From the NCBI GenBank assembly GCA_028285065.1, contig JANQQG010000086.1, positions 1-56,391 of the forward strand: 56,391 nucleotides of DNA, read 5' to 3'. The notes under the pieces are model-generated. The model had not been told where the DNA came from and ran no database searches. It was given only the letters and a program-made list of their open reading frames with translations. The DNA comes from Phycisphaerales bacterium. GTDB lineage: Bacteria; Planctomycetota; Phycisphaerae; Phycisphaerales; UBA1924. Below, one piece after another: positions 2,930 through 54,371 of this stretch. The position numbers and the translations under genes were made by a program. How positions within the stretch are numbered: position 1 is the first letter of the stretch; each line of letters opens with the position of its first letter.

Positions 2930-4767
2930 GGCGTCGCCCCCGCGTCCACCTCACCCGCCTGGAAGATCCCGATCCGCATCCACGATCCGTTCGAGTAGTT
3001 GAAGCCCCAGTCGCGCTCGGCGAGTAGTTCGAGTTCGTGCGCATGGTCGTTGAACCACCCGAAGGCCTCGCCCGAGTCGGGTGTGTCGTGCGCGCCGCGT
3101 GTGCGTCGCATTGCGACGACGAGCAATGCGTCGGGGTGCTCGGCGAGCCACGCCATGGCGTCGCCGTCTCCGAGGCGCACTGCTCGTCCGCGCGTCAGGA
3201 AAACGAGGCTGTCCTCGTGGTAGCCGACGAGGCCGACCGGGCGCTCGTGCGACGGATCGAGCTCTTCGAGCGCCCGTGTCGCCCAGGGGGATAAGAACAG
3301 GTTTCGTGCGCGCGGAAGGGCGACCTGCAGGAGCGTGATGGCGAGGATGCACGCCGCGGCGATGGAGAGCCAGGTCGTGCGCACGAACTGTCCGTCGCGC
3401 GTGCGTCGCCACGCGAGCAGAACGAGCGCGCCAGCGCCGAGGCCGGTGATCGTAAGGAGGATCAGCGGCATCGTGCGCCCGGTCTCAGGGGTTGCCGCCA
3501 TGAACGTGATGCCGACCGGCGCGAGCACGACCAGCGCGGCGCCGAGGACACCCCAGACGAGGAAGCCGATGCGTGAGAGCGTGTTGCGGACCTGCGGGAG
3601 CGAGCCGGTGGTAGCAGCGAGTACCGCGCGCCCGGTCAGGAGCGCGATCGGCGGGTAGAGGGGGAGCGTGTAGTGGGGGAGCTTGGTGGAGCTGAGTTCG
3701 AAGATGAGCCAGCTCGGCACGATCCAGCAGAGGCAGAACGCCTCGGGCGTGCGGGCCGCGCGGAGCCCCTTCTTCCAGAGCCCGCGCCGGATCGCGCGCT
3801 CGATCGCGATCCCGACGAGGAGCGAGCCGGGCCAGAAGAGCACGACCAGCGCGATCAGGTGGTACCCCGGTGGGCCCCAGTGTCCCTCCTTCGCGCTCGC
3901 GGCTCGCTCGAAGACCTCTTCCCGGAGGATCTGCGTCAAGCGTTCCCACCCGACATCCGGGTGTGCGCCCAGCATCATGACCCACGGCGCGAACACGAGC
4001 GCGCCGATCACGATGCCCAAGAGGGCAACCAACACCGGGCGCCACGTACGCACGACGGATGCAAATGTCGCGCCCGTTAGCAGGACGACCATCGGGGTGA
4101 TCGGCCCCTTCGTTAGAGCACCCATGCCGACGCACAACCCGAGCGGAATCGTCCACGCCAACCGACCCCGGCTCGCGCACCACAGGCATGCCATCGCGCC
4201 GGTCGTGCACGCGAGCAGGACCATGTCGGCGCGGGCCTGGTTGGCCTCCCAGACGATGATCGGGCTGACCGCGAGCAGGGCCGCGCCGATGAACGCGGCA
4301 CGCGGATCGAACATGCGCCGGCCAACGAGGAACGTCACCAGCACCGCGAGCATCCCGGCAAGCGCCGAGGGCACGCGGTACATCCAGATCGCATCGCTCG
4401 GAGGATGCCCGCCCGTGAAGATCCAGGCGGAGTCCGTCTGCACCCAGTAGATCAGGGGCGGCTTGTTGAGCCTCTGCCGGTCCTGCACCTGCGGGATCGT
4501 CAGTCCGCCCCCGTGCAGCGCCGCGTCCTGCTGGTCCTCGGGCAGGGCGACGCTCTCGAACATCTGGCGGGACGCTTGGGCAAAGCGGCTCTCGTCTCGG
4601 TCAACCGGTGGGACGGAGAACAGGCCCGGGAGGAAGACGACGAGGCAGAGCCCCACGAGGAGTGTGACCCCGGACCACGGGCCCGCGCGGAATCTTCCCG
4701 CTCTCGCTGGTGGTGGGGGGGTGCGGGGGGCCGAACAATGGGTGGTCATGGATCCTCGTTGGCACAC
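2926..4767 (-). CDS. GT-C fold glycosyltransferase (ArnT / PMT_2, family 39-like)
   Basis: 613-aa ORF with more than 10 hydrophobic helices. First extracytoplasmic loop reads VDRDESRFAQASRQM, the DE motif typical of ArnT/PMT-like enzymes. C-terminal soluble domain. The start may be the ATG at 4749 (MTTHC). Confidence 0.75.
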   Translation of the reverse strand: MCQRGSMTTHCSAPRTPPPPARAGRFRAGPWSGVTLLVGLCLVVFLPGLFSVPPVDRDESRFAQASRQMFESVALPEDQQDAALHGGGLTIPQVQDRQRLNKPPLIYWVQTDSAWIFTGGHPPSDAIWMYRVPSALAGMLAVLVTFLVGRRMFDPRAAFIGAALLAVSPIIVWEANQARADMVLLACTTGAMACLWCASRGRLAWTIPLGLCVGMGALTKGPITPMVVLLTGATFASVVRTWRPVLVALLGIVIGALVFAPWVMMLGAHPDVGWERLTQILREEVFERAASAKEGHWGPPGYHLIALVVLFWPGSLLVGIAIERAIRRGLWKKGLRAARTPEAFCLCWIVPSWLIFELSSTKLPHYTLPLYPPIALLTGRAVLAATTGSLPQVRNTLSRIGFLVWGVLGAALVVLAPVGITFMAATPETGRTMPLILLTITGLGAGALVLLAWRRTRDGQFVRTTWLSIAAACILAITLLQVALPRARNLFLSPWATRALEELDPSHERPVGLVGYHEDSLVFLTRGRAVRLGDGDAMAWLAEHPDALLVVAMRRTRGAHDTPDSGEAFGWFNDHAHELELLAERDWGFNYSNGSWMRIGIFQAGEVDAGATP

Positions 4768-5608
4768 GCTTCCGGACTATAACCGCGGGCTCTGGCTGCC
4801 CCTTCGGTGGCTGTCGCGCGCATGGGTCGGGCTGTGCCTGATCCTCGAGCCGCTGACGATCTGGGTGAACGCCCCGAAGCGTCGCGACTGGGCGCGGCCG
4901 GTTGTCGTTGGTGGCCTGATCGCCTTCCTCCTTCTGTGGCTGGGCCTCGATCGGGTCCTGGCCCCGAGTGAAGACTGGGCGGGGCTCGGCGGGGACATCA
5001 AGCGCGAATGGAACGCCTGGCAGCAGTACGGGGCCCTGACGTCGGTGGTCGTGATCGCGATCGTGATCTGGCTACTGGACCGGGCCAAGCGGACGACTTT
5101 GGCAGACCTCGGGCTCGCTTGGCTCCTGGTCGGCGGGGCGGCGAGCCTCCTCAAGCCCCTGATCGGGCGGGCTCGCCCCAAGTACGCGGATCCGGAGGCG
5201 TTCGTCGGTCCGTTCGGGGCGTTCCCGGTGACGCGTCATGGGGAGGGGCAGGTGATGAGCTCGTGGGAGGCGGGGTATGAGCTGGCCTCGATGCCCTCGA
5301 GCCACACGGCCGCAGCCGTGGCGCTCAGCGTCTACCTGGCAATGACCTACCCACGTCTCCGTCTGCTGGCGATCTTCCTGGCGGGGATGGTGGCGCTCGG
5401 AAGGGTCTGGTCCGGTGCCCACTGGCCGGCGGATGTCGTCGTGGGTGCGAGCCTTGCGATGGCGATCGCGGTGCCTGCGGTGCGGGGCCGCTGGGGGCGG
5501 CGTTTGCTCCGCATGGAGCAACCGGCTGCGGCCGAGGGTGGGGCCGGCAAGCCCGGGGAGCTCGCGGTCCGCGAAGGTGCTGCCCGGCCCGAGCCGGTGG
5601 CGGGGTAG
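4748..5608 (+). CDS. PAP2 superfamily phosphatase
   Basis: All three PAP2 motifs are present: KPLIGRARP (K-x6-RP), PSSH, and R-x5-H-x3-D in GRVWSGAHWPAD. It is a membrane protein. The internal ATG at 4748 is chosen because upstream codons lie on the divergent gene and look like shadow sequence. Confidence 0.8.
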   Translation: MDPRWHTLPDYNRGLWLPLRWLSRAWVGLCLILEPLTIWVNAPKRRDWARPVVVGGLIAFLLLWLGLDRVLAPSEDWAGLGGDIKREWNAWQQYGALTSVVVIAIVIWLLDRAKRTTLADLGLAWLLVGGAASLLKPLIGRARPKYADPEAFVGPFGAFPVTRHGEGQVMSSWEAGYELASMPSSHTAAAVALSVYLAMTYPRLRLLAIFLAGMVALGRVWSGAHWPADVVVGASLAMAIAVPAVRGRWGRRLLRMEQPAAAEGGAGKPGELAVREGAARPEPVAG

Positions 5609-40911: not shown

Positions 40912-43900
40912 CTAGGTCGGCTCGTCGTCCGCGGTGATCGAGACCCCGTACTCGGCGGCCACGGCGACGACCCTCTGGAGCGACTCCTCTTTCGACTCGC
41001 CGAGATCGACGAGGAGTGCGCGGTAGTTGGCCAACGCGGCTAGGAGCCTCGGATGCTGGTGCCCCGTCGAGCGTGTGAACTCTAGGAAGATGTTGATCAT
41101 CCGTCGCATGGGCGGCTCGGCTTCGGCTATCCGGTCCGTGGCGATGAGCAATGCAGCAAGGTTGTTGAGGTCGATGGCGACTTGGGGATGTTCGGCGCCG
41201 TAGCTCACCTTGTCGACCTCAAGCGCTCGTCGCATGAGCGGCTCGGCTTCGTCGAGTCGGTCGGCGGTGTTGAGCATTTGGGCGAGGTTGTTCAGGCGGA
41301 GGGCGACTGAAGGGTGCTCGGGGCCGAACGCCTGCTCATCGATCTCAAGCGCTCGTCGCATGAGTGACTCGGCTTCGTCGAGTCGGTTGGTACTGTGGAG
41401 TAACACAGCGAGGTTGCTCAGGCGGGTAGCTACGTTGGGATGTTCGGGACCGAAGCTCTGCTCATCGATCTCGAGCGCTCGTCGCATCGGCGGTTCGGCC
41501 TCGTCGAGTCGGTTGGTGGACTGGAGTAATTGGGCGAGGTTGTTCAGGCGGATGGACACCTTCGGGTGCTTGGGACCATAGGTCTGCTCGTCGATCTCGA
41601 GTGCCCGTCGGATGAGGGGCTCTGCCTCCTGGAGTCGGTTGGTGGCTTGGAGCAATGCAGCGAGATTGCTCAGGTCGCCGGCGACGTTGGGGTGCTCCGG
41701 GCCGAAGGTCTCCGCGTCGATGTCGAGTGCTCGTCGCAAGAGCGGCTCGGCTTCAGCGAGTCGGTTGGTCTCCTCGAGCAAGAGGGCGAGGTTGTTGAGG
41801 TCCCTCGAGACGCTGTGGTGTTGGGGACCGAAGTGCGTCTCATCGATGTCGAGTGCTCGTCGCATGAGCGGCTCAGCCTCGGCGAATCGACCGGTCGCTT
41901 TGAGCACCTGACTGAGGTTGCTCAACTTCGTGGCGATCCGTGGGTCCTGAGAATCGCCGCACTGCTCGTCGATCTCGATCGCTCGTCGCAGGAGTGGCTC
42001 GGCCTCGTCGAGTCGGTTGGTGTCTTGGAGCAACTGGGCGAGGTTGTTGAGGCTGATGGCCACGGCCGTGTGCTGAGGACCGAAGGCCTGCTCAGACAAT
42101 CCCAGTGCCCGGCGCATGAGAGGCTCGGCTTCCTCAAGGCGGTTGGTCGTGTGGAGCAACTGGGCGAGGTTGTTTGCCTCGGTGATGACCCTGGGGTGCT
42201 CAGGGCCGAACGCATCCTCGTCAATCTCGAGCGCGCGTCGCATGAGCGGCTCGGCTGCGGCCAAGCGCACTTGGAAGTGCAGATAGTGACCGACCTTGGC
42301 AAGGAGCCAGCCGCTCCGAAGGCCATCCCCGTGACGCCAAAGGTGCTCCGCAAGGGCCGGTCCGTGTGGTGAGAGGAGCTCCCAGATTGGCCAACTCTCG
42401 ACGTGCGTGTTCGTGTCGCCGTCGGGCGCATATCCACGTAGCGCCGTGACCGCCTCGTTCGCCGCCGCCTTGTGCTCTTTATCATCGAGCTGCGACGCCA
42501 CGACCGCCTGGATCAGTCGGTGCACGGTCACGGACTCACCGTCCTCGCTCCGCTTGGCGAGGCTGAAGAGCAGGAGCGGCATCAGGGCCTCGTCGAGGTC
42601 CTCCGTTGCTTCCTCGAGCAGCCCGACCGGGATCGGCGCGGGGGCCAGCAGCGAGCAGATCCGCAGCAGCCTGACCGACTCCTCGGGGAGCTGCTCGAGC
42701 GATGATTCGTAGGTTGTCGCCACGCTGCGCGGGTACTTCATCAGGCGCTCGTCGTGCCAGCCGCGGACCTTCTCGTCGAAGGATGCCCAACGCTCGCGGT
42801 AGGCGCTGATGGTGGTGCCGGTGGCTCGGATGTAGGCCGCGCTCTGTTCGAGGGCGAGGGCAAGCCCGTCGACGTCTTGGGCGAGCAGGCGTGCGTCCTG
42901 CTCGTCGTTCTCTGTGATCGCACGCCCGACCGTGCCCCGCCGCTCCGTGGCCTCCAGCAGGAACTCCGTCGAAGCGTCCTCGTCAAGGACGTTCAGCTCC
43001 AGCGGCGTCACGGCGTTCGACCATTGGCTGATGCGGCTTGTGATCACGACATGCCCCGCACGTAGGTGCGCGAGCTTCGCCTCGACCGCCGCGGCGGCCT
43101 CCTCCGTGTCTACGTTGTCGAGGATCAGGAACCAGCCGGAGTGGTGGTCCAACCAGCGCAGCACTTCCGCGAGCTTCACTTCGGCGTTCGCCTCGGGCGG
43201 CAGGCCGAGGTCGAGCACCAGCGGGCCGGCGAGCGCGCCCAGGTTCGCCATCAGCGCGTCGGGTGAGTCGGCCTGGACGAACAGGAGCGCGGAGTAGTCG
43301 GCTCTGTTGGCCAGGCCGAACTCGAGTGCGAGGCGGGTCTTGCCGACGCCGCCCTCGCCGTGGATCGACTGGCGCGCGACGATGGCCGTGGCGTGGGTGG
43401 ACTCAGCGCGGAGCGACTCGCGCAAGATGCTCATGGACTCCTCACGCCCCTTGAAGAGCGTGCCGAGGCTCGTGAACTCCTGGCTGAACGGGACCGTGAC
43501 CGGTGTCGTCGATGGCGCACCCGCACGCGGCGGATCCGCAAGCACCCGCTCGTGGCGCTCGATGATGTGGCGCACGATCTGGTCGATGGGGACGACGTTG
43601 CCGTCGATGTAGTGGGCCGTGTCCGGGATCGGGCGGACCCGCGCCTTGTCGAACCGGAGCAGGACGACGCGTGAGTCCTCTTGGTTGAGCATCAGGTCCT
43701 TGATGGCCTTGCCCTCGGCGTTGGTCCAGTTCTTGCGTGCGTAGTCCTCGCTGATGCAGACCACGACCAGCTCGGCCTGCTCGCGGTACAGGTCGTAGAG
43801 CGTCGCGTCGAGGTCGATGCCCGCCAGCTCCGCCTCGTGTCGACGGTCGTAGAAGACGCGCTCGGTGGGGAACTGCTTGCGCAGTTCGGCATCGAGGCGC

Positions 43901-43998
43901 AGCACGTGCTCGCGCTGCTCGCCCGCGTAACTGAATGCGATGTCGAACCGCCTCGGTGAGGCGGCCGCATCCTGAGATTGATGAGTTGCGTCAGCCAT
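40912..43998 (-). CDS. TIR - NB-ARC (STAND P-loop NTPase) - TPR repeat protein
   Basis: Start at the internal ATG at 43998 (MADATHQ). TIR region: FDIAFSYAGEQREHV...VVVCISEDYARKNWTNAEGKAI. P-loop HGEGGVGKTRLALEF. Walker B WFLILDNVD. Then ten 42-aa TPR units (NNLAQLL..TNRL.EAEPLMRRALEIDE..FGPEHP). Confidence 0.85.
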   Translation of the reverse strand: MADATHQSQDAAASPRRFDIAFSYAGEQREHVLRLDAELRKQFPTERVFYDRRHEAELAGIDLDATLYDLYREQAELVVVCISEDYARKNWTNAEGKAIKDLMLNQEDSRVVLLRFDKARVRPIPDTAHYIDGNVVPIDQIVRHIIERHERVLADPPRAGAPSTTPVTVPFSQEFTSLGTLFKGREESMSILRESLRAESTHATAIVARQSIHGEGGVGKTRLALEFGLANRADYSALLFVQADSPDALMANLGALAGPLVLDLGLPPEANAEVKLAEVLRWLDHHSGWFLILDNVDTEEAAAAVEAKLAHLRAGHVVITSRISQWSNAVTPLELNVLDEDASTEFLLEATERRGTVGRAITENDEQDARLLAQDVDGLALALEQSAAYIRATGTTISAYRERWASFDEKVRGWHDERLMKYPRSVATTYESSLEQLPEESVRLLRICSLLAPAPIPVGLLEEATEDLDEALMPLLLFSLAKRSEDGESVTVHRLIQAVVASQLDDKEHKAAANEAVTALRGYAPDGDTNTHVESWPIWELLSPHGPALAEHLWRHGDGLRSGWLLAKVGHYLHFQVRLAAAEPLMRRALEIDEDAFGPEHPRVITEANNLAQLLHTTNRLEEAEPLMRRALGLSEQAFGPQHTAVAISLNNLAQLLQDTNRLDEAEPLLRRAIEIDEQCGDSQDPRIATKLSNLSQVLKATGRFAEAEPLMRRALDIDETHFGPQHHSVSRDLNNLALLLEETNRLAEAEPLLRRALDIDAETFGPEHPNVAGDLSNLAALLQATNRLQEAEPLIRRALEIDEQTYGPKHPKVSIRLNNLAQLLQSTNRLDEAEPPMRRALEIDEQSFGPEHPNVATRLSNLAVLLHSTNRLDEAESLMRRALEIDEQAFGPEHPSVALRLNNLAQMLNTADRLDEAEPLMRRALEVDKVSYGAEHPQVAIDLNNLAALLIATDRIAEAEPPMRRMINIFLEFTRSTGHQHPRLLAALANYRALLVDLGESKEESLQRVVAVAAEYGVSITADDEPT
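41050..42300 (-). repeat. in-phase 126-bp coding repeats (about 10 TPR units)
   Basis: The anchor GCGCTCGTCGCAT recurs at 41223, 41349 and 41475 on the + strand, exactly 126 bp apart. At protein level there are 10 occurrences of AE(P/S)(L/P)(M/L/I)RR. Confidence 0.85.
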
Positions 43999-44184
43999 CG
44001 TCGGCCCTTCGCCACCCCCTCCTGCGGCCAATGGTAAGAGGCGTCGGTGGCTTCGAGGCCGGAAGCGCACCCCACGCATCCCCGTCCCGCCCACTATCAT
44101 CCCGTCTCCGGTCAAGAACCCGATCGGAGCACGAACCCATCGCCACCTTGTTGGGTGGTTAGCGAGCATTGAGGAAGCGGGCGG

Positions 44185-45732
44185 ATGAACAGGGCGAGGC
44201 GGACCGGGATCACGAGCGGTCGGTTGGTGCGCTGGGTGCTCTTGCTGGCGCTGACGGGCATCGCGGCTCCCGCCTGCGCAGCGGGCCCGGAGTCGGAGCC
44301 GCTCTCCAAGACAGAACGTGAGATCCTCGACGAGGTCTATGAGGTTGATCGGCGGCCGCGCCTGCTCATCGATCTCGTGCACGAGGGTGGGGACGCGGCC
44401 GAGCGAGTGATGACGGCGTGTCGCACCGGTGTCGAGCGCGAGCTCGCGCTCGCGGGCGTGCGGATCCTGGGCGTGCCGGACGACCCGTCGGACCGGGTTG
44501 CCAAGGTGCTCAATGCAACCGAGGGCGAGCGCCTGGTGGGCGACGACATGTTCGAGCTCATGTCGCTGGACCGAGTCGATTTGATCCTGCGCCTCAGCGC
44601 CCGCGAGCGTGGGAGCAGGATTCGCTACGAGGGCCAGTTCATCGACCTGCGCAGTGGAGAGGTCTTCGGTGGGCCGCGACTCTCACCGGGTCGGGTCGAC
44701 GAGATCGACGACGTCTACGGGCGCGCCCTCGGGAACAACCTGGCCCGCCAGTTCGCCGACGCGTTCGTCCGCGCGGGTGAGCGGCGCGCCGGCCGGCACA
44801 TGATCGCCCTGAGTGTCGGCGGCGTCGGTGAGCAGGCCGAGCACCACTCCCTTGTCAACGCGATCCGGCGCCTCGTCGGGGCCGCACCAGAGTCCGGGTG
44901 GCAACGCCGTCCGGCGCGCGGGTCCATCTCGCGTTTCAAGATCATGACGACGATGGACGCAGAGGCGCTCGGCGCGGAGCTCGAGTCAACCTTCGACGGC
45001 AAGTCCGGTCCGCTTCGTCTGCGTGTGCTGAGCATCGCGGGCTGGACGATCGCCGCGGAGCTCTTCCTCGCGGACCAGCCGCGTTGGCTCCAGGCGCGAG
45101 CCGTCGCGGATTCGCGCCGTCGCGTTTCGCGTGCGCGAGGTGAGACGATTGGGGTGGTGCTGCAGGGTGGCGGGCGCGCGACCGATCGGGTCATCGGCGA
45201 GTTGCGAGAGGTTGGTCTGCACGCCCAGCGTGGAGAAGAGTCGGTGCCGTTCGTAATTCGCGGTCGCGTGGGGACCAGGTCTGCCGAGCTGGTGATCGAG
45301 GACGTGGGCCAAGAGCGGATCATCGCCTTTGCGAGCTGGCCCTCGGAGGAGTTCGGCGATGGGCACGGGCTCGATCCGCTCGATGAGGCCGACAGGCTGC
45401 GCTACCTCATCGGGACACTCGCGGAGCAACTCGACCAGGGCATCACCGAGGACATCCGCCAACTCGATGTGCGCCTGAGCATCCCGGGGCGTGCCGAGGA
45501 GGCCCGAGCCGACGCGGAGGCGAGCCTGGGCACGCTGATCGGGGTCCGCAGGATCGTGCCGATCTCGGGCGACGATGATGCATGCCGCTTCCGGATCGAG
45601 TTTGCGCGGCGCTCGCACGAGAAGATGACGCGTGCCGTCCAGAACGCCTTGGAGTTCCTGTCGCCATCGTTGGAGCTGAAGCGCACGGAGCAAGGGACCC
45701 TGGTGTTCGAGCGCGCGGGCGGGGCTGAGTAG
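44185..45732 (+). CDS. secreted hypothetical protein, no family recognised
   Basis: GAGGAAG lies upstream of the ATG. Signal-like N-terminus LVRWVLLLALTGIAAPACAAG. 515 aa, divergent from the TIR-STAND gene with a 186-bp spacer. Confidence 0.6.
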   Translation: MNRARRTGITSGRLVRWVLLLALTGIAAPACAAGPESEPLSKTEREILDEVYEVDRRPRLLIDLVHEGGDAAERVMTACRTGVERELALAGVRILGVPDDPSDRVAKVLNATEGERLVGDDMFELMSLDRVDLILRLSARERGSRIRYEGQFIDLRSGEVFGGPRLSPGRVDEIDDVYGRALGNNLARQFADAFVRAGERRAGRHMIALSVGGVGEQAEHHSLVNAIRRLVGAAPESGWQRRPARGSISRFKIMTTMDAEALGAELESTFDGKSGPLRLRVLSIAGWTIAAELFLADQPRWLQARAVADSRRRVSRARGETIGVVLQGGGRATDRVIGELREVGLHAQRGEESVPFVIRGRVGTRSAELVIEDVGQERIIAFASWPSEEFGDGHGLDPLDEADRLRYLIGTLAEQLDQGITEDIRQLDVRLSIPGRAEEARADAEASLGTLIGVRRIVPISGDDDACRFRIEFARRSHEKMTRAVQNALEFLSPSLELKRTEQGTLVFERAGGAE

Positions 45733-45828
45733 GCGGGTCTTGCCGGCGAACCGTTGAGTGTTCGGTCGCCCGGACCGTCGAGTATGTCGTGGTATGCTCC
45801 CGGCTCCTCGCGCTGAGCGCCACGACCG

Positions 45829-47643
45829 ATGAAGAGCGAATCAAAGAAGATCGAACGTCCGCGTCCTGTCCTCCGCATCGGAGTGCTCTGGTTCGGCGAC
45901 GAGGCGGCCGGCGTTCCACCGAGTGCTCAGGTCGAGGCGATCGGCGGTCTGCTCGATGGCGCAAGGGCAGAGGCGGAGGGGGTCCTCGGGCAGTCACTCG
46001 CCGATGGCAGCGGGCGCACGCTCGCGGATCTGTTCGAGGGCCAGGACCTCGTGGTCAGACTCATCACCGGTGTTGCGACCGGGTTCGAGCGGTCGGCGAT
46101 CGATGCCGGAGCCCGGCGGGGCATCCTGTTGCGCTTGGTCAGCCGAGCCTCGTGGGCTACGGCGCGCGCAACCGGGGGAGAGTCGATCGGCACGATGGAG
46201 ACAATCGAGCGCTCCGAGGATCCGATCTGGGTCGAGTTGACGGGCGAGACGGAGGAGCGTCGAGAGCTCTTCGTTCGCGAGCAGTCCGACTTGATCATCG
46301 CGGGAGTCGATGGGTCCGAGCCATCGCGCCACCGGTTCGAGGCCTTCGCAGCGGCCGCTCGCATGCCGGTCCTCCCTGTTGGCCCGGCTGGGCTCGAGTC
46401 CGACACAGACCTCGCGGCGTTGGTCAGGATCGTGCTTGTTCCGACTGACTCGAGACACGACGTCGACAAGGACGTTGCGCAAGGAGTGCTCGATGATCTC
46501 TATGCCACGTTCGATCGATCTGGGACCGGGCTTTGGCGCGCGCTTCTCAGTGTGCTCTCGGTCCCGTGGAAGTCGCTCTATGGGCTGGCCAAGCTCAGGA
46601 CCGGGCATTCCGGTCCGGCCTCCGATGGTGATCAAGCGGACGTGAAGACCGAGCGCTTCGATGCGCACGTCAAGCGTCTGGCATCGACCCAGGAGGAGTT
46701 GGATGATCGCATCGCGATCCCCTTCATGAACGGGTACCGCGGCCTCGTCATCTGGTGTTACCTGCTCGGCTTCGTCGTCGTCGGTTTCGGCCTGGTGCAC
46801 GGCACCGTCAAGGCGCTCGAATCAGCCACGTGGCCCGCGGTGGTGGAGTTGGCATTGCTCCTCGTGATCCTGTCCCTCGTCTTCATCTCGGAACGCAAGC
46901 TCTCGCTGCGTCAGCGCGCTGCACGGGTGCGCCACATCGTCGAGCAACTGCGACACCTTCAGGCGCTCGCGGCGCTCGGGCGTGCGGCGAGTGCCGCGCC
47001 GCCGCCGCCGGGGTACTCGACGGTCGTGCCCTCCGACGGTGCATCTGGGTGGTACGCCCGTTCGATGTTCCGAGACGTCGGCACACCGGCGCCGTGCGAG
47101 GCGGCTCGCTCACGCTCCGAAGGCGAAGCCCCAACGATCGTGCGCTTTGATGACTCGTACTACACCGAGGTGCTCGCGGCCGCACGCGCCTGGGTGCGTG
47201 GCCAGCGGGACTACCACGAGGCAACGGCCCACCGGCACGAGTGGCTGGAGGAGCTTGCGGTCGACGTCATGTGGAGCCTGTTCGCACTCGTCATCATCGT
47301 CGTTGGGCTGAAGGTGGCGCACTGGATGCCGGGAACCGAGACGAGCAAGACAGTCGCGTTGTTCGTGATCGTGCTGGGACCGGCGCTGCTCGGAGCGGTG
47401 CACGCGATCGGCGTGCAGATCGAGTTCCTCCGCCTCGCCACCCGTTCCAAGGACCTCGCCGAGATGCTCTCTCTGCGGCTCGAGAAACGCCTGGGGGCGT
47501 CGGCAGAGCCCAACGAGGCCGGGTGGTCGGTCGCACAGCGCGGCGACCTGGAGTCGACACTCAGCGATCTCTCTACACTGATGCTCGCTGAGGTACTCGA
47601 GTGGCGAGCGATCTACCTGCTCAGAGAGTTGTTGCCACCATGA
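45829..47643 (+). CDS. SLOG-like (LOG/DprA-type Rossmannoid) domain fused to two SLATT/DUF4231-like 2TM modules
   Basis: N-terminus has LRIGVLWFG, LITGVATGFERSAIDAGARRG, RELFVREQSDLIIAGVDGSEPS and ARMPVLPV, a LOG/DprA-like strand-helix pattern. First TM pair: GLVIWCYLLGFVVVGFGLV / WPAVVELALLLVILSLVFI. Second TM pair: VMWSLFALVIIVVGLKVA / VALFVIVLGPALLGAVHAIGV, preceded by QRDYHEATAHRHEW. Domain naming rests on pattern memory. Confidence 0.55.
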   Translation: MKSESKKIERPRPVLRIGVLWFGDEAAGVPPSAQVEAIGGLLDGARAEAEGVLGQSLADGSGRTLADLFEGQDLVVRLITGVATGFERSAIDAGARRGILLRLVSRASWATARATGGESIGTMETIERSEDPIWVELTGETEERRELFVREQSDLIIAGVDGSEPSRHRFEAFAAAARMPVLPVGPAGLESDTDLAALVRIVLVPTDSRHDVDKDVAQGVLDDLYATFDRSGTGLWRALLSVLSVPWKSLYGLAKLRTGHSGPASDGDQADVKTERFDAHVKRLASTQEELDDRIAIPFMNGYRGLVIWCYLLGFVVVGFGLVHGTVKALESATWPAVVELALLLVILSLVFISERKLSLRQRAARVRHIVEQLRHLQALAALGRAASAAPPPPGYSTVVPSDGASGWYARSMFRDVGTPAPCEAARSRSEGEAPTIVRFDDSYYTEVLAAARAWVRGQRDYHEATAHRHEWLEELAVDVMWSLFALVIIVVGLKVAHWMPGTETSKTVALFVIVLGPALLGAVHAIGVQIEFLRLATRSKDLAEMLSLRLEKRLGASAEPNEAGWSVAQRGDLESTLSDLSTLMLAEVLEWRAIYLLRELLPP

Positions 47644-47951
47644 CAGCGCCGGATCCCAGCCCGTACACGCCGCGTCCGATCGATACATCGGGCATCTCGG
47701 TGCCGCCCGAACTCGACGCGCTCGTCGAGCGATTGGCGGAGCACACACACGACGTTTGGGCGCAGCAGCGCATGGCGGATGGGTGGACCCACGGCCCGGC
47801 GCGCGACGACGCGACACGGCGCCACCCCTGCCTCGTCCCGTACGCCGACCTGCCCGAGTCGGAGAAGACGTACGACCGGGAGGTTGCACGCGGTCTTCTG
47901 GCGGCACTGTTGGCGCTCGGGTGGAGCGTGGGGCGTGCGGGCAGCACGTAG
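47640..47951 (+). CDS. stand-alone RyR (ryanodine-receptor repeat) domain protein
   Basis: Contains LAEHTHDVWAQQRMADGWTHGPARDDATRRHPCLVPYADLPESEKTYDREVARGLLAALLALGW, which matches the RyR-domain consensus as I remember it. The ATG at 47640 overlaps the stop of the SLOG-SLATT gene (ATGA). Confidence 0.75.
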   Translation: MTAPDPSPYTPRPIDTSGISVPPELDALVERLAEHTHDVWAQQRMADGWTHGPARDDATRRHPCLVPYADLPESEKTYDREVARGLLAALLALGWSVGRAGST

Positions 47952-48019: not shown

Positions 48020-49030
48020 CTATGCCGCGGTCTTGAGTTCGGCAACGTCCTCGCCGGTCCCGGCGACGACCAGGACCTCACCGAGGGCTAGGGTGTGGGC
48101 GGGCTCGGGGTGGGTCGTCACATCGCCGGACGCATCGCGGATCGCGACGATCGCGAGGCGAGGATGGCGCTTCCCGAGTTGGATGATCGCTTCGCCCAGA
48201 TGAGGCGACTGCGGGCTGATCGCGATCTGCGCGAAGCTGAGCGCATCGGTCCCGCCTTGCAGCCCGGGGAGCAGGCGAGCAACCTCCGGGCGGAGCATGT
48301 TCTCTGCGATCCCGTCGCCTCCGTAGCTCGACGGACTGATCACGTTCGTCGCACCTGCTCGCCGCAGCTTGCAGATCGACGGCTCGTCCTCGGCGCGGGC
48401 GATGATCGGCACCTTGGGCGCCAGGGCGCGCGCGGTCAGACAGATCAGCGCATTGACGGCATCGGCCGAGGTCACGGCCGCTACGGCAGACGCGCGCTCG
48501 ATGCCGGCATCCTGAAGCGCCTGATCGGAGGTGGCATCGCCCTCGAAAGCGACGATGCCGCGCGTCTGCGCCTCGGCGACTCGGTGAGGATCGGAGTCGA
48601 TCGCGACGACCGCGGCGCCATCCTCGAGGAGCTTCGTGATGACACGTTCACCGGTGCGCCCGAGACCGCAGATGATGTGATGGTCTTGCAGCTTGCGTGC
48701 TTTCTCGATCATGCGTCGCTCCGGGTGTGTGGCGCGTGCCATGATGTTCTGGAGGATGAGGCCTGCGGTGTACGAGACGGTGCCGATGCCGCCGATCATG
48801 AGGACGGCGGTGAAGCGTTCGCCGTTCTCGGTCAGCCCGTAGTCGCCGTAGCCGACCGTGGTGAGCGTGACAAGCGTGAAGAAGAGCGATCGCCAAGGCG
48901 ACCAGCCCTCGATCCAGGTGTAGCCGGCCGTTCCGAATACGACGACCGCGCACAGCAGGAGAAGAGACCGGCGCACGACAGGGTCCCATTCCCCAGGGAG
49001 GATCCGCTTTGCGACACCCTGCGGGATCAT
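48020..49030 (-). CDS. 2TM potassium channel with RCK (TrkA-N/TrkA-C) gating domains (MthK/Kch-like)
   Basis: Selectivity filter TLTTVGYGDYG. Rossmann motif HHIICGLGRTGERV. C-terminal TrkA-C-like region (HLGEAIIQL...LAIVAIRD...GEVLVVAG). Confidence 0.9.
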   Translation of the reverse strand: MIPQGVAKRILPGEWDPVVRRSLLLLCAVVVFGTAGYTWIEGWSPWRSLFFTLVTLTTVGYGDYGLTENGERFTAVLMIGGIGTVSYTAGLILQNIMARATHPERRMIEKARKLQDHHIICGLGRTGERVITKLLEDGAAVVAIDSDPHRVAEAQTRGIVAFEGDATSDQALQDAGIERASAVAAVTSADAVNALICLTARALAPKVPIIARAEDEPSICKLRRAGATNVISPSSYGGDGIAENMLRPEVARLLPGLQGGTDALSFAQIAISPQSPHLGEAIIQLGKRHPRLAIVAIRDASGDVTTHPEPAHTLALGEVLVVAGTGEDVAELKTAA

Positions 49031-49122: not shown

Positions 49123-50025
49123 CTAGGCGAGCGAGAGTGCCATCTTGCTGACCATGCCGGCCTCGAGGAGGACCGCGGTCTCAGTGCCGCCGTCGACGAG
49201 TGTCCCGCTCTCCATGCGCTTCCCGACCACGATGATCCGCCAGACCCCGGGCTGGAGGCCGGCGAAAGCGACCGAGGTCCCTTCCCTCTCGATCGGCGGC
49301 TCGCCGTGACGCTCCAGCGTGACGGTTGCACTCTCCGCATTCGTGACACTCACGTCCAGGCCTGTGTCGAGAGAGCGCTGGACCTGCTCGGCCGCTCTCT
49401 GGCTTGCTTCAATCCGGGCCTTGACCATCCCATCGAGTTGCTTGAGCGAGCTGCGGAACTCTTCCATCCATTGGTCGGATTCTTCACGGATGAGCGCGTG
49501 GATCTCTGCATTGAGCTCGCGCATCACATGAAGTGCGTGCGTGGCCTGATCGTCGGTGGGTGTCTGGTCCCACGACTGCTGGAGTCGGAGCCACTGCAGG
49601 TTCGCGCGGTCGAGCAGTTCGGCTGTCCTCAACCCCGTACTCATGTAGCGCAGCCAACCGGACGTCGCTCCCAGGAAACGATCCACCCAGATGAGCCCCG
49701 CACCGATCAGGAGCGCCACGGCCGCCCACGTCGCTGGGATCATGGGCATTCCGTCGTCCTTCTTGATCAGCGAGGAGACAACGGGGATCAGCACTCCGAT
49801 GCCGGCCGCAAGGATCGCCAAGATCCGGATCGTGAGCCCGATGCTCCGCTTGCGGCCGCGTTTGCGGAAGTACCAGTCAATCGTCTCCCTGATCGGCTTG
49901 TGGACGAAGAGTTCGAACAGCGACTGAAGGCTGGCGCGCGGGTTGGCATCGTCCCAGACCGTCGCCTTGTCCAGAGACGGCCGGGTCAGGTCGGTTGCTT
50001 CGTTTCGCTTCCAGAACTTCCACAT
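49123..50025 (-). CDS. SLATT-like 2TM protein with coiled-coil and C-terminal beta-sandwich-like domain
   Basis: Contains IRETIDWYFRKRGRKRSIGLTIRILAILAAGIGVLIPVV, then TWAAVALLIGAGLIWVDRFLGATSGWLRY (2TM hairpin followed by a W..Y helix). The C-terminus reads VSVTNAESATVTLERHGEP...GVWRIIVVGKR. The start is either the ATG at 50025 or the GTG at 50061. Confidence 0.55.
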   Translation of the reverse strand: MWKFWKRNEATDLTRPSLDKATVWDDANPRASLQSLFELFVHKPIRETIDWYFRKRGRKRSIGLTIRILAILAAGIGVLIPVVSSLIKKDDGMPMIPATWAAVALLIGAGLIWVDRFLGATSGWLRYMSTGLRTAELLDRANLQWLRLQQSWDQTPTDDQATHALHVMRELNAEIHALIREESDQWMEEFRSSLKQLDGMVKARIEASQRAAEQVQRSLDTGLDVSVTNAESATVTLERHGEPPIEREGTSVAFAGLQPGVWRIIVVGKRMESGTLVDGGTETAVLLEAGMVSKMALSLA

Positions 50026-50234
50026 CGTGGCAACGCCCTCATCAATGTGCTGCACATCCACGCAGGCGGCGTGCGCGGGATGGACGCGCCGAGTCTATGG
50101 GTCGGTCGCTGTGTCTCATCATGAGACGGGGCAGTGCGGGCGTGTTTCACCTGATCGGGTGATCGACCCACCTTGCTAGGTAAGCCTCGGCGGGGTGTGC
50201 GGGAAGTACGGGGCAACGGCGTTAGCATTGGGTG

Positions 50235-51833
50235 ATGAGAGGCTTCACAGATCGCGCACGGAAGGTCATGGCACTGGCCAACCAAGAGGCCCAGCGCTTC
50301 AACCACGAGTACATCGGGACCGAGCACATCCTCCTCGGCCTCGTCAAGGAAGGCTCCGGGGTCGGCGCGAACGTGCTGAAGAACCTGGACGTTGACATCC
50401 GCAAGGTGCGCCTCGAGGTCGAGAAGCTCGTCAAGTCGGGACCGGACATAGTCACGATGGGCAAGCTCCCTCAGGCCCCGCGAGCCAAGAACGTCATCGA
50501 GTACGCCATCGAGGAGGCGCGCAATCTCAACCACCGCTACGTCGGCACGGAGCACCTCTTGCTCGGATTGCTCGATGAGCGGGATGGCGTTGCCGCGCTG
50601 GTCCTCATGAACCTGGGCCTGCGGCTTGAGGAGGTCCGGGAGGAGGTCCTCAACCTCCTCGGCGTGGGTGCGGAGCCAGACGAGGTAGAGGTGTTGCTCG
50701 CGGAGGGATTCACGTCACATCAGCTAGTCGAACTTGAGACTGAGATTCTCAGGATCTCGCGCCTTGAGGCGAGGGCAGTCGCTGAGCGAGCCTTCGACGA
50801 GGTCTCCGCATTTCGAGAGCGAGCAGAGCAGCTCCGGCGGCGGCGCGATGAACTCCGCAGGGCACTGCGCACGATCCCCGCCGGCGTGCCCCGCCTGCCC
50901 GAGCCATTGAAGGGGCTCGCGCTTGCCGTCGCGGCCCCGGATGCTCCGTTTGTCGAGCGTGCCGGGCTGGAGGAGATCGTCACGCACCTCAAGGAGCGCA
51001 CGCCGCTGCTCGTCGTAGGACCGTGCGGGAGCGGACGTTCTGCACTGGTTCGGGCGGCGGCCGAGCACATGCAGCGATCCGGCCAAGCTCGGTTGCTGAT
51101 GCAGCCGGACCACGAGGGACTGAGTGAGGACGGTGTTCCAGAAACCGATCGTCTGGAGCGGCTCGTCGATGCGTTCCGGAGGGATCCGTCGTACACGCTC
51201 GTGCTCGAGGACCTCGAGCAATACCTGCCCTCGCCGGCTGCGTCCGGGGCGTTCAGCGACGCGTGGCAAGTGTGGGTGATGGATGCGATCGGCCAGAGCG
51301 TAGCGCTCATGGCGACGACGACTCCGGACGGCCTTGGTGCGCTGCGCGACGCATGGCCCGGGTTCGTTGGGGGTGCCAGCGTGGTCGAGGTGCCGCCTAT
51401 CGATGATGCAGCGCTCGCCGAGATCCTGCGCCAGCGTTTGGCGACGATCGAGCGGACACATCCGGTCCGTTTCGACAATGGCGTTGTCGAGCAAGTGCTC
51501 CGCTTGGCCGCGGCGTGGGGAGCGGGCGCCGGGTTCGCCGAGCCGGGTCGCTCGCTGCGACTGATCGAGGACGCCGTCGCGCACGCTGGCGCGGCTCGGG
51601 TGGCCGAGCCGGTTGATTTGGGCGCGGGTGGTAAGGGCGTCGGGAGTGAGCAAGAGCTGAGCGATGCGGCGAGCGGGCGTCGTGTGGGATCGCTCGTCGA
51701 TAGCGGCAACTACGACGATGCGATCGCGATGATCGAGGAGCTACGCGCCCGCGAACGTGGGGCTCGGGGAGAGGTGAAGGCTGTGACATTCGGGGTGGCC
51801 GAGTTGAGGGCGTTCGTCGAGGAGGACAGTTGA
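50235..51833 (+). CDS. ClpC-like N-domain (2 x Clp_N) + UVR-like helix + single degenerate AAA-like P-loop module
   Basis: Clp_N repeats at EYIGTEHILLGLVKEG and RYVGTEHLLLGLLDE. UVR-like AVAERAFDEVSAFRERAEQLRRRRDEL. Walker-A-like VVGPCGSGRSALV has Arg in place of Lys. Walker-B-like LVLEDLE. Only about 533 aa, with no second ATPase module. Confidence 0.75.
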   Translation: MRGFTDRARKVMALANQEAQRFNHEYIGTEHILLGLVKEGSGVGANVLKNLDVDIRKVRLEVEKLVKSGPDIVTMGKLPQAPRAKNVIEYAIEEARNLNHRYVGTEHLLLGLLDERDGVAALVLMNLGLRLEEVREEVLNLLGVGAEPDEVEVLLAEGFTSHQLVELETEILRISRLEARAVAERAFDEVSAFRERAEQLRRRRDELRRALRTIPAGVPRLPEPLKGLALAVAAPDAPFVERAGLEEIVTHLKERTPLLVVGPCGSGRSALVRAAAEHMQRSGQARLLMQPDHEGLSEDGVPETDRLERLVDAFRRDPSYTLVLEDLEQYLPSPAASGAFSDAWQVWVMDAIGQSVALMATTTPDGLGALRDAWPGFVGGASVVEVPPIDDAALAEILRQRLATIERTHPVRFDNGVVEQVLRLAAAWGAGAGFAEPGRSLRLIEDAVAHAGAARVAEPVDLGAGGKGVGSEQELSDAASGRRVGSLVDSGNYDDAIAMIEELRARERGARGEVKAVTFGVAELRAFVEEDS

Positions 51834-52822
51834 TGCTGGAGAACACGGTCCTGTTCCAACGTCTCGAGGCGTGCTGCGGGAAGTGCGAAGCGGGCGGTCT
51901 CGACCTCACACGCCTGCCCACGATGGTCAAGGACAGCACGGACGAACTCGGGAACGTCCTGGATCGCGCCGTCAAGACATTCGACGACTACACGCTGCAC
52001 GACCGGGCGCACGCGGTGCGCGTCGTCAAGCTGATGTCGAACCTACTCGGTCCGGATCGGCTCGATGCACTTACGCCTGTTGACCTCGCTGTCCTGATCC
52101 TCGCGGCCTACGCCCATGACACGGGCATGGCCGCCTCGAAGGAGCGCCGGGATGAGTTGAAGGCATCGCCCGAGTACGCCGAGTTCATGCTCCGTCACGA
52201 GAGCGAATGGGTGGAGGTCGAGCGTGTGCGGGCCGGTGACGATCCCGCCCGAGCCGCGTTCCTCGAATCGCGCCTGTTTCAGGAGTTCCTGCGCTCGCGC
52301 CACCACCTACTCTCGGCCGAATTGGTCCGCAAGCACTTTGCGTCTGGGATGACGGTGCAGGAGAAGTCGTTTGCGCCGATGGTTGCGGACTTGTGTCGGA
52401 GCCACGGCGAGTCGGTCGCGTGGGTTGCGAGGGAGCTGCAGAGTGTCCCGTTCGCCATGGACTACAACGTGGACCTCCCATTCCTCGCGTGCGTGTTGCG
52501 ACTCGCGGACTTTCTGGATCTCGACGCAACGCGTGCGCCCGAGAGCCTGATGACACTGATCAAGCGTGGTAATGAGAGGAGCCATCGTGAGTGGCGGAAG
52601 CACCAGGCGTCACTCTTCTCGGTCTCCGACACGGCCATTCGGTTCAACGCGACATTTGAAGATTTCTTTGAAGAGAAGGTACTCCGCGACACGCTGGACG
52701 CCATCGAAGTCGAGCGTAAGGAGATCATGGGTTTTCTTGGGGCAGGGGTGGGGGAGGGGGCCGCCTGGGGTTGGATCTGCCTGTCGAGCGTCAAATCGAG
52801 TCCGTTGGCTACCTCTACGTGA
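51833..52822 (+). CDS. HD-superfamily metal-dependent phosphohydrolase-like protein
   Basis: The ATG at 51833 overlaps the preceding stop (TGATG). Contains LHDRAHAVRV, LILAAYAHDTGMA, LCRSHGES and LRLADFLDLDATR. The reading frame ends at the TGA at 52820-52822, just after a G-run region. Confidence 0.7.
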   Translation: MLENTVLFQRLEACCGKCEAGGLDLTRLPTMVKDSTDELGNVLDRAVKTFDDYTLHDRAHAVRVVKLMSNLLGPDRLDALTPVDLAVLILAAYAHDTGMAASKERRDELKASPEYAEFMLRHESEWVEVERVRAGDDPARAAFLESRLFQEFLRSRHHLLSAELVRKHFASGMTVQEKSFAPMVADLCRSHGESVAWVARELQSVPFAMDYNVDLPFLACVLRLADFLDLDATRAPESLMTLIKRGNERSHREWRKHQASLFSVSDTAIRFNATFEDFFEEKVLRDTLDAIEVERKEIMGFLGAGVGEGAAWGWICLSSVKSSPLATST

Positions 52823-52865
52823 GTTCAAGTTCCAACTCGAGTACCGCGAGATCATCACACTGCTC

Positions 52866-54371
52866 ATGGGAGTCCAGCTGTACCGAGACCAGAGAGTCTT
52901 CGTGCGAGAACTGCTCCAGAACGCGCTCGATGCGTGCCGCGTGAGCCAGATCACGGCCGAGAAGCGAGGAGGCAACTACACAGGCTCGATCCACTGCGCG
53001 CTGCGCAATACGGCGGACGGTGAGCAGATTCTCGAAGTCTCCGACAGGGGGTCGGGCATGACCAAGGCGATCATCGGTGACTTCTTCATGCGAGTGGGCC
53101 GGTCCTACTACCATTCTTTCGCGTTCCGACGCCGTCAGCTTGGCTTCGAGCCGATCAGCCAGTTTGGAATTGGCATCCTCTCTTGCTTCATGAATGCGGA
53201 TCGGATCGAGGTCGAGACTCGACCCGATCCGCTCGTCCACGAGACACTCGACGATGACGAGCGTGCGGGCCTGCACCTCGAGATCAGTGGCCCGCACGAG
53301 TACTTCGTTGTCCGACGTCTCAACCGTGATCTGGTCGGCGACGGGTTCCCGCAGGGCACGACGGTCCGTGTCTACCTCGAGCGCCCCTTGGGTCCGAGCT
53401 TGCGGCGCGTCGTGCAGGAGTTTCTTGCACGGACGCCGTACAATGTGAGCGTCGAAGAGTCGGACCACTCGCGGACGGAGGTGGTGAGCCGTGAGTTCGG
53501 GTTCGAGGATGACGCGTTCCTGGGCGTGTTCGAGGCTGCGCCGGGGGCGTTCGGGTACGCGCACCGGGACGTTGAGTTCAACGGCGCGCTGGGCTTTGAT
53601 CTTAGAGGGACCGTCCGCCTGTTCATGCTCGATCGTGACGCGCGTCGTTACTTGTCGTTGCGAGACGCCGGACAGTACTCCGTCGTGGGTTTTTCCGAGA
53701 TGGGTGAGACGCTGGTCAATGTTGCGCGCATGTCGGATGAGGTGGCCGGGACGCTCCGCAGCCATGTCGCGGAGCTCCGTTCGACCGGAGCCGAAGTGTC
53801 CCGCGACGCACGAGGCGATATCGAGCAGGTTGCTCGAGTGGTCGAGCGTCTGCTCGAGGCGCTTGCTCACCGTCATGATTCCGACGAGGTCAACGCACAG
53901 TGGGTATCACTGGATGCGCAGATTGACGCGATCCGCACGTCGCAGGCGTTTCGGACCTCGCCCCGCCATCCGGTCGTGGCGGGCACCCTTCGGCGGATTC
54001 GCACCGGTCTCGAGTCCTTCGTCACCGGCAACGTGTCGCTTGCCGCACCCACCGGGTTGCTGACACAGGACGGGATCGATCTCTCCAATGCGTTCTATCT
54101 CTCACGCCACCTTCGGCTCGGCATCGCTCATATGTTCAACCTGGACCTCTGCGGCAAACATCGCGTCACCCTCACCGCTTCCAGAAACGACATCGTTGCT
54201 GACCATCGGCTCGACGCGCTCGTTGCGCATTTCCATGAGCGCATCGGGCTGGAGCTTGGCAGGTGGTTCACCGAGGAAGAGGTTCCGCCGGAGCAGATCG
54301 ATGCCTACTTGCGTGTTGCGCCCAAGGCGCTTGGCGCGGCAGTCCGGCGTGGACTCGATTCGCCGAGCTAG
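52866..54371 (+). CDS. Hsp90-like GHKL (Bergerat fold) ATPase with uncharacterised C-terminal region
   Basis: Motif I RELLQNALDA, motif II SDRGSGM, motif III ISQFGIGILSCF. The first ATG in frame is at 52866. Protein-like sequence in this frame already begins at 52821 (EFKFQLEYREIITLL), so the true 5' end is unresolved (see findings). Confidence 0.7.
   Translation: MGVQLYRDQRVFVRELLQNALDACRVSQITAEKRGGNYTGSIHCALRNTADGEQILEVSDRGSGMTKAIIGDFFMRVGRSYYHSFAFRRRQLGFEPISQFGIGILSCFMNADRIEVETRPDPLVHETLDDDERAGLHLEISGPHEYFVVRRLNRDLVGDGFPQGTTVRVYLERPLGPSLRRVVQEFLARTPYNVSVEESDHSRTEVVSREFGFEDDAFLGVFEAAPGAFGYAHRDVEFNGALGFDLRGTVRLFMLDRDARRYLSLRDAGQYSVVGFSEMGETLVNVARMSDEVAGTLRSHVAELRSTGAEVSRDARGDIEQVARVVERLLEALAHRHDSDEVNAQWVSLDAQIDAIRTSQAFRTSPRHPVVAGTLRRIRTGLESFVTGNVSLAAPTGLLTQDGIDLSNAFYLSRHLRLGIAHMFNLDLCGKHRVTLTASRNDIVADHRLDALVAHFHERIGLELGRWFTEEEVPPEQIDAYLRVAPKALGAAVRRGLDSPS

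Follow-up and report, generated by a model that had tools for sequence, protein, structure and literature searches.

What do three closely packed genes of a planctomycete contig encode, and do they form a single system? The locus lies at positions 50235-54371 of a stretch of 56,391 nucleotides (nt) from a Phycisphaerales bacterium (contig JANQQG010000086.1 of assembly GCA_028285065.1; GC content, 65%), which we call the window. Three open reading frames (ORFs) follow one another on its + strand at 50235-51833, 51833-52822 and 52566-54371, hereafter genes 1, 2 and 3; the stop codon of gene 1 and the ATG of gene 2 overlap (TGATG at 51831-51835, one base in common). An earlier reading made from the DNA letters only, hereafter the sequence-only reading, had noted these ORFs, their overlap and a set of motifs in each of the three products, and all were located where expected. 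It had proposed a three-component system composed of a protein with ClpC-type N-terminal domains and a degenerate ATPase module, an HD phosphohydrolase, and an Hsp90-like GHKL ATPase. We propose instead, with moderate confidence, a conflict cassette of two genes that belongs to the HD-CE–HSP90 class, probably directed against phages or mobile elements and possibly assisted by a SLATT_2 protein. The identity and the architecture of the cassette are the firmer part of this proposal, and of those we are confident. The moderate grade covers both together with the general logic of the system, and the input role of the ClpC-like partner is far less certain.

The number of genes was settled by the homologues of gene 3. 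All 19 of its closest relatives are single proteins of 835-856 aa in which an HD-CE domain occupies the N-terminal part and the Hsp90-like region lies behind it; their identity to gene 3 is 38-49%, with 96-98% of the query covered, and the fusion layout recurs in most of some 100 relatives that are more distant. In tblastn alignments, residues ~5-305 of the fused homologues matched 51836-52744 in the gene-2 frame and residues ~333-847 matched 52821-54365 in the gene-3 frame, such that Hsp90 homology sets in at nt 52821, one base past the gene-2 stop codon. The gene-3 frame contains no start codon from 52740 to an ATG at 52866, and initiation at that ATG would remove the conserved N-terminal segment EFKFQLEYREIITLL. 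Gene 3 thus lacks a usable start codon.

The region between the two domains (52736-52820) accounted for the break. Three-frame translation of this interdomain linker, compared with the linker of the 19 homologues (consensus L.L..PV...IES.GY.YEEFRFQLEY), revealed that the third frame of the window retains the coding sequence of the conserved linker (RLGLDLPVERQIESVGYLY). Two deletions of 1 nt within 85 nt shift the frame on either side of it. The first falls in a G-rich run at ~52736-52762; the second, at 52819-52820 (tac g-t gag), is outside any homopolymer, at a point where the relatives have Y-E/D-E-F. Repair of both yields a protein of 842 aa that is 40-50% identical to its homologues and retains 121 of the 122 columns invariant among the 19, the sole deviation being outside the HD domain. 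Judged from these alignments, genes 2 and 3 belong to one disrupted gene, which we call gene B. The proposed three-component system is thus an effect of the two frameshifts, which split what is one polypeptide in each of the 19 closest homologues. Programmed frameshifting at the gene 2/3 junction was considered and rejected: it would take two separate -1 shifts, the second of them at a non-slippery site, and no homologue is split.

As sequenced, the HD-CE and Hsp90 domains of the window lie in different frames and do not form a single polypeptide. Neither piece of gene B contains an in-frame stop codon. Because the rest of the gene is intact and nearly all invariant columns are retained, the damage must be either very recent or an assembly artifact. 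If both deletions exist in the organism, no product of gene B is formed and the cassette in this genome is a recently inactivated pseudogene without present function; this concerns the state of the window locus and not the nature of the system. Two independent 1-nt deletions so close together, one of them away from a homopolymer, argue for such an inactivation, and defense genes are often lost by such routes. The gene nevertheless bears no further damage, the first deletion sits in a low-complexity G-rich run prone to assembly error, and the contig comes from one metagenome-type assembly and was seen only one time. We consider inactivation possible but rather unlikely. The pcrA gene at the end of the window, which was also checked for frameshifts, simply runs off the end.

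The 5′ part of gene B (51833-52747) codes for an HD-CE phosphohydrolase domain, as indicated both by Pfam and by tblastn of the fused homologues. Gene 2 matched the Pfam HD-CE family (PF24391) with an E value of 2.3e-51 and 175.4 bits, against a cut-off of 27, over profile positions 1-258 of 263, in agreement with the HD assignment made earlier. The motifs HDRAH (51998-52012), AHDTG (52112-52126) and LRLADFLDLD (52496-52525) are all present, and the first two retain the catalytic His/Asp columns of the HD fold, which places the domain in HD-CE rather than iHD-CE.

The 3′ part of gene B (52821-54371) codes for an Hsp90-like ATPase body. For gene 3, the N-domain of PRK14083, the NCBIfam model of the HSP90 family, scored 8e-25 and HtpG scored 2e-17; a profile of the homologues matched HtpG in the PDB at 2.5e-20. 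The three Bergerat-fold motifs, ELLQNALDA (52908-52934), DRGSGM (53043-53060) and QFGIGILS (53160-53183), have the Hsp90-like form, as had been noted. The fold of the body was assessed on the closest homologue, P0122, and not on the window protein itself: the AlphaFold2 model, built from a 64-sequence alignment (pLDDT, 90.8; pTM, 0.81), aligned with full-length HtpG, TRAP1 and Hsp90 chains over ~540-570 columns with E values of ~1e-11. By this model the approximately 370 residues of gene 3 that the sequence-only reading had left unassigned are the remainder of the Hsp90-like body. All top sequence and fold matches of the GHKL ATPase are Hsp90, HtpG, TRAP1 or Grp94 proteins; the earlier suggestion of a MORC/Hsp90-like type therefore holds for Hsp90 and fails for MORC/MutL.

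A separate observation concerns the HD-CE domain outside this setting. Its segment at 51833-52744 resembles positions ~697-883, the C-terminal region, of the PADLOC model for RT_UG24 (PDLC03762; 3e-13). This resemblance to a defense-associated reverse transcriptase (DRT) suggests that the same effector domain has been reused in a DRT-class system.

Gene 1, the partner (gene A of the cassette), codes for a protein of 532 aa composed of two Clp_N repeats, a UVR-like coil, an inactivated AAA+ module of the D1 type, and a helical tail. The two repeats (Pfam Clp_N, 5e-34) make up a ClpC-type N-terminal domain at aa 3-147 (50241-50675), identified by Pfam, by PDB sequence matches and by fold. Their motifs are EYIGTEHILLGL at aa 25-36 and RYVGTEHLLLGL at aa 101-112, with GTEH in both. 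The N-domain matched those of ClpC and ClpC1 in the PDB at 5e-40 by sequence and with TM scores of 0.78-0.85 at ~3 Å by fold, and it is 86-90.5% identical to the N-domain of housekeeping ClpC of Phycisphaerae. The remainder of the protein, D1 included, is only ~20% identical to ClpC. BLASTP against Phycisphaerae ClpC accordingly gave a colinear pattern, a near-identical N-domain followed by D1 at low identity. Each partner N-domain is nearer to ClpC than to any other partner N-domain, and the identity matrix of partners and ClpC is nearly additive and star-like. Slow evolution under constraint would explain the 90% identity as well as gene conversion from the host clpC would.

Behind the N-domain, the helix at aa 163-212 (50721-50870) matched the UVR motif of the ClpC M-domain in a second BLASTP segment (ClpC residues 438-497). 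Pfam UVR was detected in gene 1 orthologues, and the model of gene 1 has helices at 163-183 and 187-212. This coil precedes D1 in gene 1, whereas in ClpC the UVR motif is inserted within D1. The two Clp_N repeats and the UVR-like helix described from the sequence are thus both present.

The inactivated D1-like module spans aa 245-456 (50967-51602), as delimited by colinearity with ClpC D1, the family alignment and the fold. In the alignment with ClpC, GEAGVGKT is replaced by GPCGSGRS (aa 262-269; 51018-51041), ILFIDELH by TLVLEDLE, which contains the Walker-B remnant LVLEDLE (aa 322-328; 51198-51218), and QPDKSIDVIDEA by EPGRSLRLIEDA; a lid motif, AEPGRSL, lies at 51537-51557. Neither a canonical Walker A (GxxxxGK[ST]) nor a canonical Walker B (hhhhDE) is present, and profile scores of the P-loop region to AAA_16 and nSTAND are below threshold. 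The ClpC alignment stops at residue ~439 of the 870-aa ClpC. A helical tail stands in place of D2, the second AAA+ ring with its ClpP-docking loop, of which the 532-aa protein contains no counterpart. The earlier description of a single degenerate P-loop module without a second ATPase ring is thus accurate. The AlphaFold2 model of gene 1 (pLDDT, 77) had its best structural matches in ClpC, specifically the complex of ClpC 1-485 with MecA. From sequence and predicted fold, gene 1 is a ClpC derivative and not itself a ClpC.

The loss of the ATPase motifs extends to the whole partner family. In an alignment that joined five orthologues taken from loci with thirteen sequences found by exhaustive HMMER scanning, the Walker-A Lys was absent from all 14 family representatives, with Arg in its place in 11 of them, and the Walker-B acidic pair was not conserved. 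Because the Lys is lacking throughout, the inactivation is, as far as this alignment tells, an old and conserved feature and not decay in the window genome. The family also keeps the deviant P-loop G-x-x-G-S-G-R together with conserved W344, WPG and AEPGR motifs. This retention suggests that the dead AAA+ module has been selected for something other than ATP hydrolysis.

Is the partner linked to the HD-CE–Hsp90 gene beyond the window? It lies directly upstream of it in all 10 clade loci: the window, the P0135, P0127 and P0132 loci, and L007, L008, L009, L168, L169 and L170. The five junctions examined have an overlap of 1-4 nt or a gap of 2 nt, and the partner orthologues measure 515-596 aa. 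Genomic comparison thus argues that the genetic coupling is real and conserved, as a two-gene pair; of the co-occurrence suggested in the sequence-only reading, the pairing of ClpN-AAA with HD and Hsp90 was confirmed, and its counting as three genes was not. The genes flanking the clade loci differ from locus to locus, and some neighborhoods are plainly metabolic.

The partner module is rare. When its C-terminal 377 aa were used in a word-indexed search, gene 1 retrieved nothing but itself. Relatives emerged from an exhaustive HMMER scan, in which the part of gene 1 outside ClpN was compared with 1.84 billion representatives; it gave 51 matches, of which only 11 proteins reached E<=1e-10. Several of these carry ClpN and UVR heads, and one, P0241, carries TIR and UVR instead. 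P0241 is the partner in L170 (867-5690), a TIR–UVR–inactive AAA protein of 572 aa whose gene overlaps the downstream gene by 1 nt; the HD-CE–Hsp90 protein of that locus has 843 aa and is 48% identical to that of the window, and a HicA/HicB toxin-antitoxin pair lies downstream. The head domain of the partner is, by this comparison, modular: either ClpN or TIR.

The broad HD-CE–Hsp90 family is represented by 440 loci among 185,579 species genomes, in many phyla and in archaea; the window clade has 2 members in the same set, so that partner module and clade are matched in their rarity. A ClpN gene was absent from the vicinity of all 158 more distant HD-CE–Hsp90 loci examined (L010-L167; genomes and metagenomes). 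The neighbor on the same strand and no more than 150 nt away is in many of these loci an ATPase of the ABC type. AAA_13 precedes the HD-CE–Hsp90 gene in 12 loci and an OLD-family AAA_15–TOPRIM gene precedes it in 9, and a PHP–SMC-like ATPase is found upstream in 7 and downstream in 5 (examples are L048 4180-6534, L038 4075-6804 and L163 2320-4098). Coupling-protein genes of type IV secretion systems (T4SS) near 8 of the distant loci point to mobile elements. Similarity to the cassette proteins on plasmids was limited to the level of the Hsp90 N-domain.

The top full-length matches of gene 1, P0002-P0004, lie in housekeeping neighborhoods, and gene 1 at first seemed to be the orthologue of a housekeeping Clp adaptor. 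They were rejected as orthologues when tblastn revealed tandem arrays of 3-4 ClpN; they score highest because the scores of tandem modules add up.

Proteins of this kind form a subject of their own. The Planctomycetota proteins P0002-P0013 (L001-L006) include arrays of 3-4 tandem ClpC-type N-domain modules (examples are L001 8001-10007, L004 2292-4157 and L006 8001-10603). Planctomycetota also encode fusions of ClpN with a four-helix bundle (PF05635). In both kinds, each module is 62-83% identical to the ClpN of the window, and the neighborhoods are unrelated. These proteins suggest that the ClpC N-domain has been widely duplicated and recycled in the phylum. In L006, a planctomycete metagenome contig, a restriction-modification fusion gene of the MmeI/Eco57I type (2416-5556) is found near two adjoining multi-ClpN genes.

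A possible third component adjoins the cassette. The ORF at 49123-50061 (- strand), divergent from gene 1 and separated from it by 173 nt, codes for a SLATT_2 protein, a two-transmembrane pore-type effector (Pfam, 1.1e-20; 74.8 bits against a cut-off of 25). SLATT_2 is adjacent in 4 of the 10 clade loci, the window included, compared with 2 of the 158 distant loci (Fisher p = 9e-5), and it is possible that this gene is an optional part of the cassette. SLATT_2 also occurs in other arrangements. In L168 (8740-12292, - strand), a second HD-CE protein, of 883 aa, has SLATT_2 directly downstream and is convergent to the ClpN/HD-CE–Hsp90 cassette; in L053 and L075, both from Actinomycetota, SLATT_2 lies immediately downstream of a distant HD-CE–Hsp90 gene. 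These three cases suggest a separate HD-CE–Hsp90 plus SLATT_2 subtype.

How might such a cassette work? We propose that the Hsp90-like clamp would act as an ATP-driven conformational switch, much like a STAND NTPase, and would keep the HD-CE domain inactive until a trigger is sensed. Once triggered, HD-CE would hydrolyze nucleotides, leading to replication arrest or aborted infection, and SLATT_2, where present, would add membrane permeabilization. The ClpC mimic would give specificity: it would display the surfaces by which ClpC binds adaptors and substrates, but would not act as an unfoldase. These surfaces could capture the usual partners of ClpC, namely, proteins marked with phospho-arginine, adaptor proteins or ClpC-targeting factors of an invader, and the mimic would relay the capture to the clamp. 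That the mimic is a sensor or decoy input of this kind, coupling the switch to events at the ClpC interface, is a tentative idea. More doubtful still is the specific version in which the partner serves as a molecular decoy for the essential ClpC: its N-domain, nearly identical to that of ClpC, would also catch ClpC-targeting invader factors or phospho-arginine, and the decoy would then unleash the HD effector via the clamp. It would be a bacterial counterpart, assembled from two chaperone families, of the integrated decoys of plant NLR proteins.

Several observations weigh against the proposed conflict cassette and its logic. No experimental report on any member of the HD-CE–Hsp90 cassettes was found in the literature, and our PDB search returned no solved structure related by sequence to the HD-CE domain. 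PADLOC-DB v2, the check for a known defense system in the window cassette, gave no full-length or system-level match for any of the three products; the partial matches were that of HD-CE to the C-terminal region of RT_UG24 and weak ones to mad8 and TmtA, of ~50 residues. Viral contigs contained no relatives of the cassette proteins. The HD-CE–Hsp90 fusion is disrupted in the window genome, and the cassette may be non-functional there. Lastly, the exchange of ClpN for TIR fits an output head, i.e., an effector, at least as well as a sensor head.

This last point leads to an opposite role for the partner, in which the ClpC mimic is the output: a dominant-negative effector that, released or activated by the Hsp90 switch, co-assembles with the host ClpC–ClpP or sequesters its adaptors, such that regulated proteolysis is shut down alongside the nucleotide depletion by HD-CE. 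In an otherwise orthologous cassette the head is exchanged for TIR, a classic effector domain. By its sequence the partner appears to keep all elements of ClpC for self-assembly and adaptor binding (N-domain, UVR/M-like coil and D1 fold) and is predicted to be unable to hydrolyze ATP, and its N-domain is held at 88-90% identity to the host ClpC. Inactive copies of host modules as dominant-negative regulators are, moreover, a proposed theme of conflict systems (PMC7159879). The D1 module is nevertheless only ~20% identical to that of ClpC, and co-assembly into ClpC hexamers is not assured because the UVR coil precedes D1 instead of being inserted in it. We regard this output role as unlikely, though a serious contender for the function of the partner.

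The arrangement of the sequence-only reading, in which a ClpN-AAA sensor, an HD effector and an Hsp90-like GHKL clamp are three separate proteins, is very improbable. It takes the DNA as it reads, with the two domains in different frames and two products given by gene callers (P0121 is a 501-aa call), and a naturally split version is conceivable. It is opposed by the fusion seen in all close homologues and most distant ones, by the two frameshifts that a split requires, by the lack of a start codon ahead of the conserved N-terminal strand of gene 3, and by the persistence of the linker in the intermediate frame. A module for housekeeping or stress proteostasis, unrelated to invaders, in which a specialized Hsp90 paralogue with an HD domain works with a ClpC-like co-chaperone, would suit the derivation of both parts from core chaperones and the metabolic neighborhoods of some loci, but is the most improbable of all given its distribution and context: the former extremely sparse and patchy; the latter variable among loci, with a TIR-headed variant, SLATT_2 and HicAB adjacent in some, and with OLD, AAA_13 and T4SS genes beside distant family members; the ATPase of the partner is, in addition, dead.

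The two-gene conflict cassette is the reading that we retain. The conflict function proposed for the locus is plausible from its context: the adjacent SLATT_2, the TIR-headed variant, HicAB in L170, the patchy distribution, and the ABC-type ATPase and T4SS genes beside distant family members. The wider surroundings in the window are compatible with a defense island and are not strong evidence on their own.

Other genes of the window include, ~6 kb upstream of the cassette, one at 40912-44382 (- strand) for a protein of 1156 aa that combines TIR_2 and DUF7779 with an NTPase region resembling NB-ARC/AAA_16 and an extended TPR array, by its domains a candidate immune protein of the STAND type. 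The stretch 44185-47951 encodes two large products without a match in Pfam or PADLOC, one of 515 aa and one of 604 aa that contains hydrophobic helices, followed by a 116-aa RyR-domain protein, the start of which overlaps the end of the 604-aa ORF. A gene for a TrkA-type K+ channel lies at 48020-49030 (- strand). PcrA/UvrD lies downstream of the cassette. Seven neighboring products of the window were scanned, with no match to SMODS or SLOG.

To our knowledge, Hsp90-coupled effectors are a class of prokaryotic immune proteins known from prediction alone. The clade described here gives a concrete handle on the trigger, a catalytically dead ClpC look-alike with a ligand-binding head close to that of the host ClpC. 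The ligands of ClpC N-domains (adaptors, phospho-arginine and cyclic peptides) have been studied in depth, which opens the trigger hypothesis to direct testing. Should the mimic prove to be a decoy or a dominant-negative poison of ClpC, it would link the core proteostasis machinery to immunity and would illustrate the reuse of housekeeping modules in immune sensing or as immune effectors.

How does the cassette compare with known systems? The sequence-only reading knew of no named system that combines these parts. The HD-CE–Hsp90 fusion is in fact already named, and its function predicted by computation. HD-CE (PF24391), iHD-CE (PF24401) and wHTH-Hsp90_Na-assoc (PF24410) are curated Pfam families, and genes 2 and 3 therefore match a named system in part. 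In 2023 Nicastro, Burroughs, Iyer and Aravind reportedly predicted, by computation, HSP90-coupled nucleotide-degrading effectors that include HD-CE–HSP90 systems, and their model is said to have Hsp90 as an ATP-dependent, STAND-like switch gating the HD-CE effector. The three Pfam families presumably derive from that work. The HD-CE–Hsp90 protein of the window belongs to this computationally predicted family, which our finding refines. It has the same domain pair in the same order, and its pieces together match end to end at 40-50% identity. The window clade differs in having a translationally coupled ClpC-derived pseudo-ATPase, or its TIR-headed equivalent, which none of the 158 distant loci has, and the window copy differs in being broken by two frameshifts. 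Of greatest interest is the partner, a ClpC mimic whose N-domain is near-native; earlier descriptions may already have recorded this partner.

With respect to switches and effectors, STAND/NLR-type proteins (Avs, bNACHT) and MORC/GHKL conflict ATPases share the logic of an NTPase switch with an N-terminal effector. The switch of the window cassette is of the Hsp90 type, and the matches of the partner P-loop to nSTAND and AAA_16 are all below the family cut-offs. In the SLATT-associated nucleotide-signaling systems, SLATT accompanies SMODS or SLOG; here, SLATT_2 adjoins a ClpN/HD-CE–Hsp90 cassette instead.

Compared with ClpC/ClpC1, the class I Hsp100 AAA+ unfoldase of ClpCP, the partner is alike in its N-domain, the order of N-domain and D1, the UVR motif and the fold. 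It differs by an Arg for the Walker-A Lys, an unconserved Walker B, the absence of D2 and of the ClpP-docking loop, and a UVR coil placed before D1. ClpN repeats have been recorded in other predicted conflict systems (PMC7159879). ClpC-N-like domains detached from an unfoldase are likewise found in mycobacterial ClpC2 and plant ClpT, and the PDB matches of the gene 1 N-domain include such ClpC2/ClpC N-domain structures (8ad9, 9p2p and 4y0b). Mycobacterial ClpC2, which serves as a sponge or sensor for the ClpC1 ligands cyclomarin A and phospho-arginine by binding them (PMC10030653, PMC13345244), is a precedent for the sensor role considered for the partner. Unlike the window partner, ClpC2 and ClpT are without a dead D1 module and a UVR coil and are far less similar to ClpC in the N-domain; it is the partner described here that is coupled to an Hsp90–HD effector.

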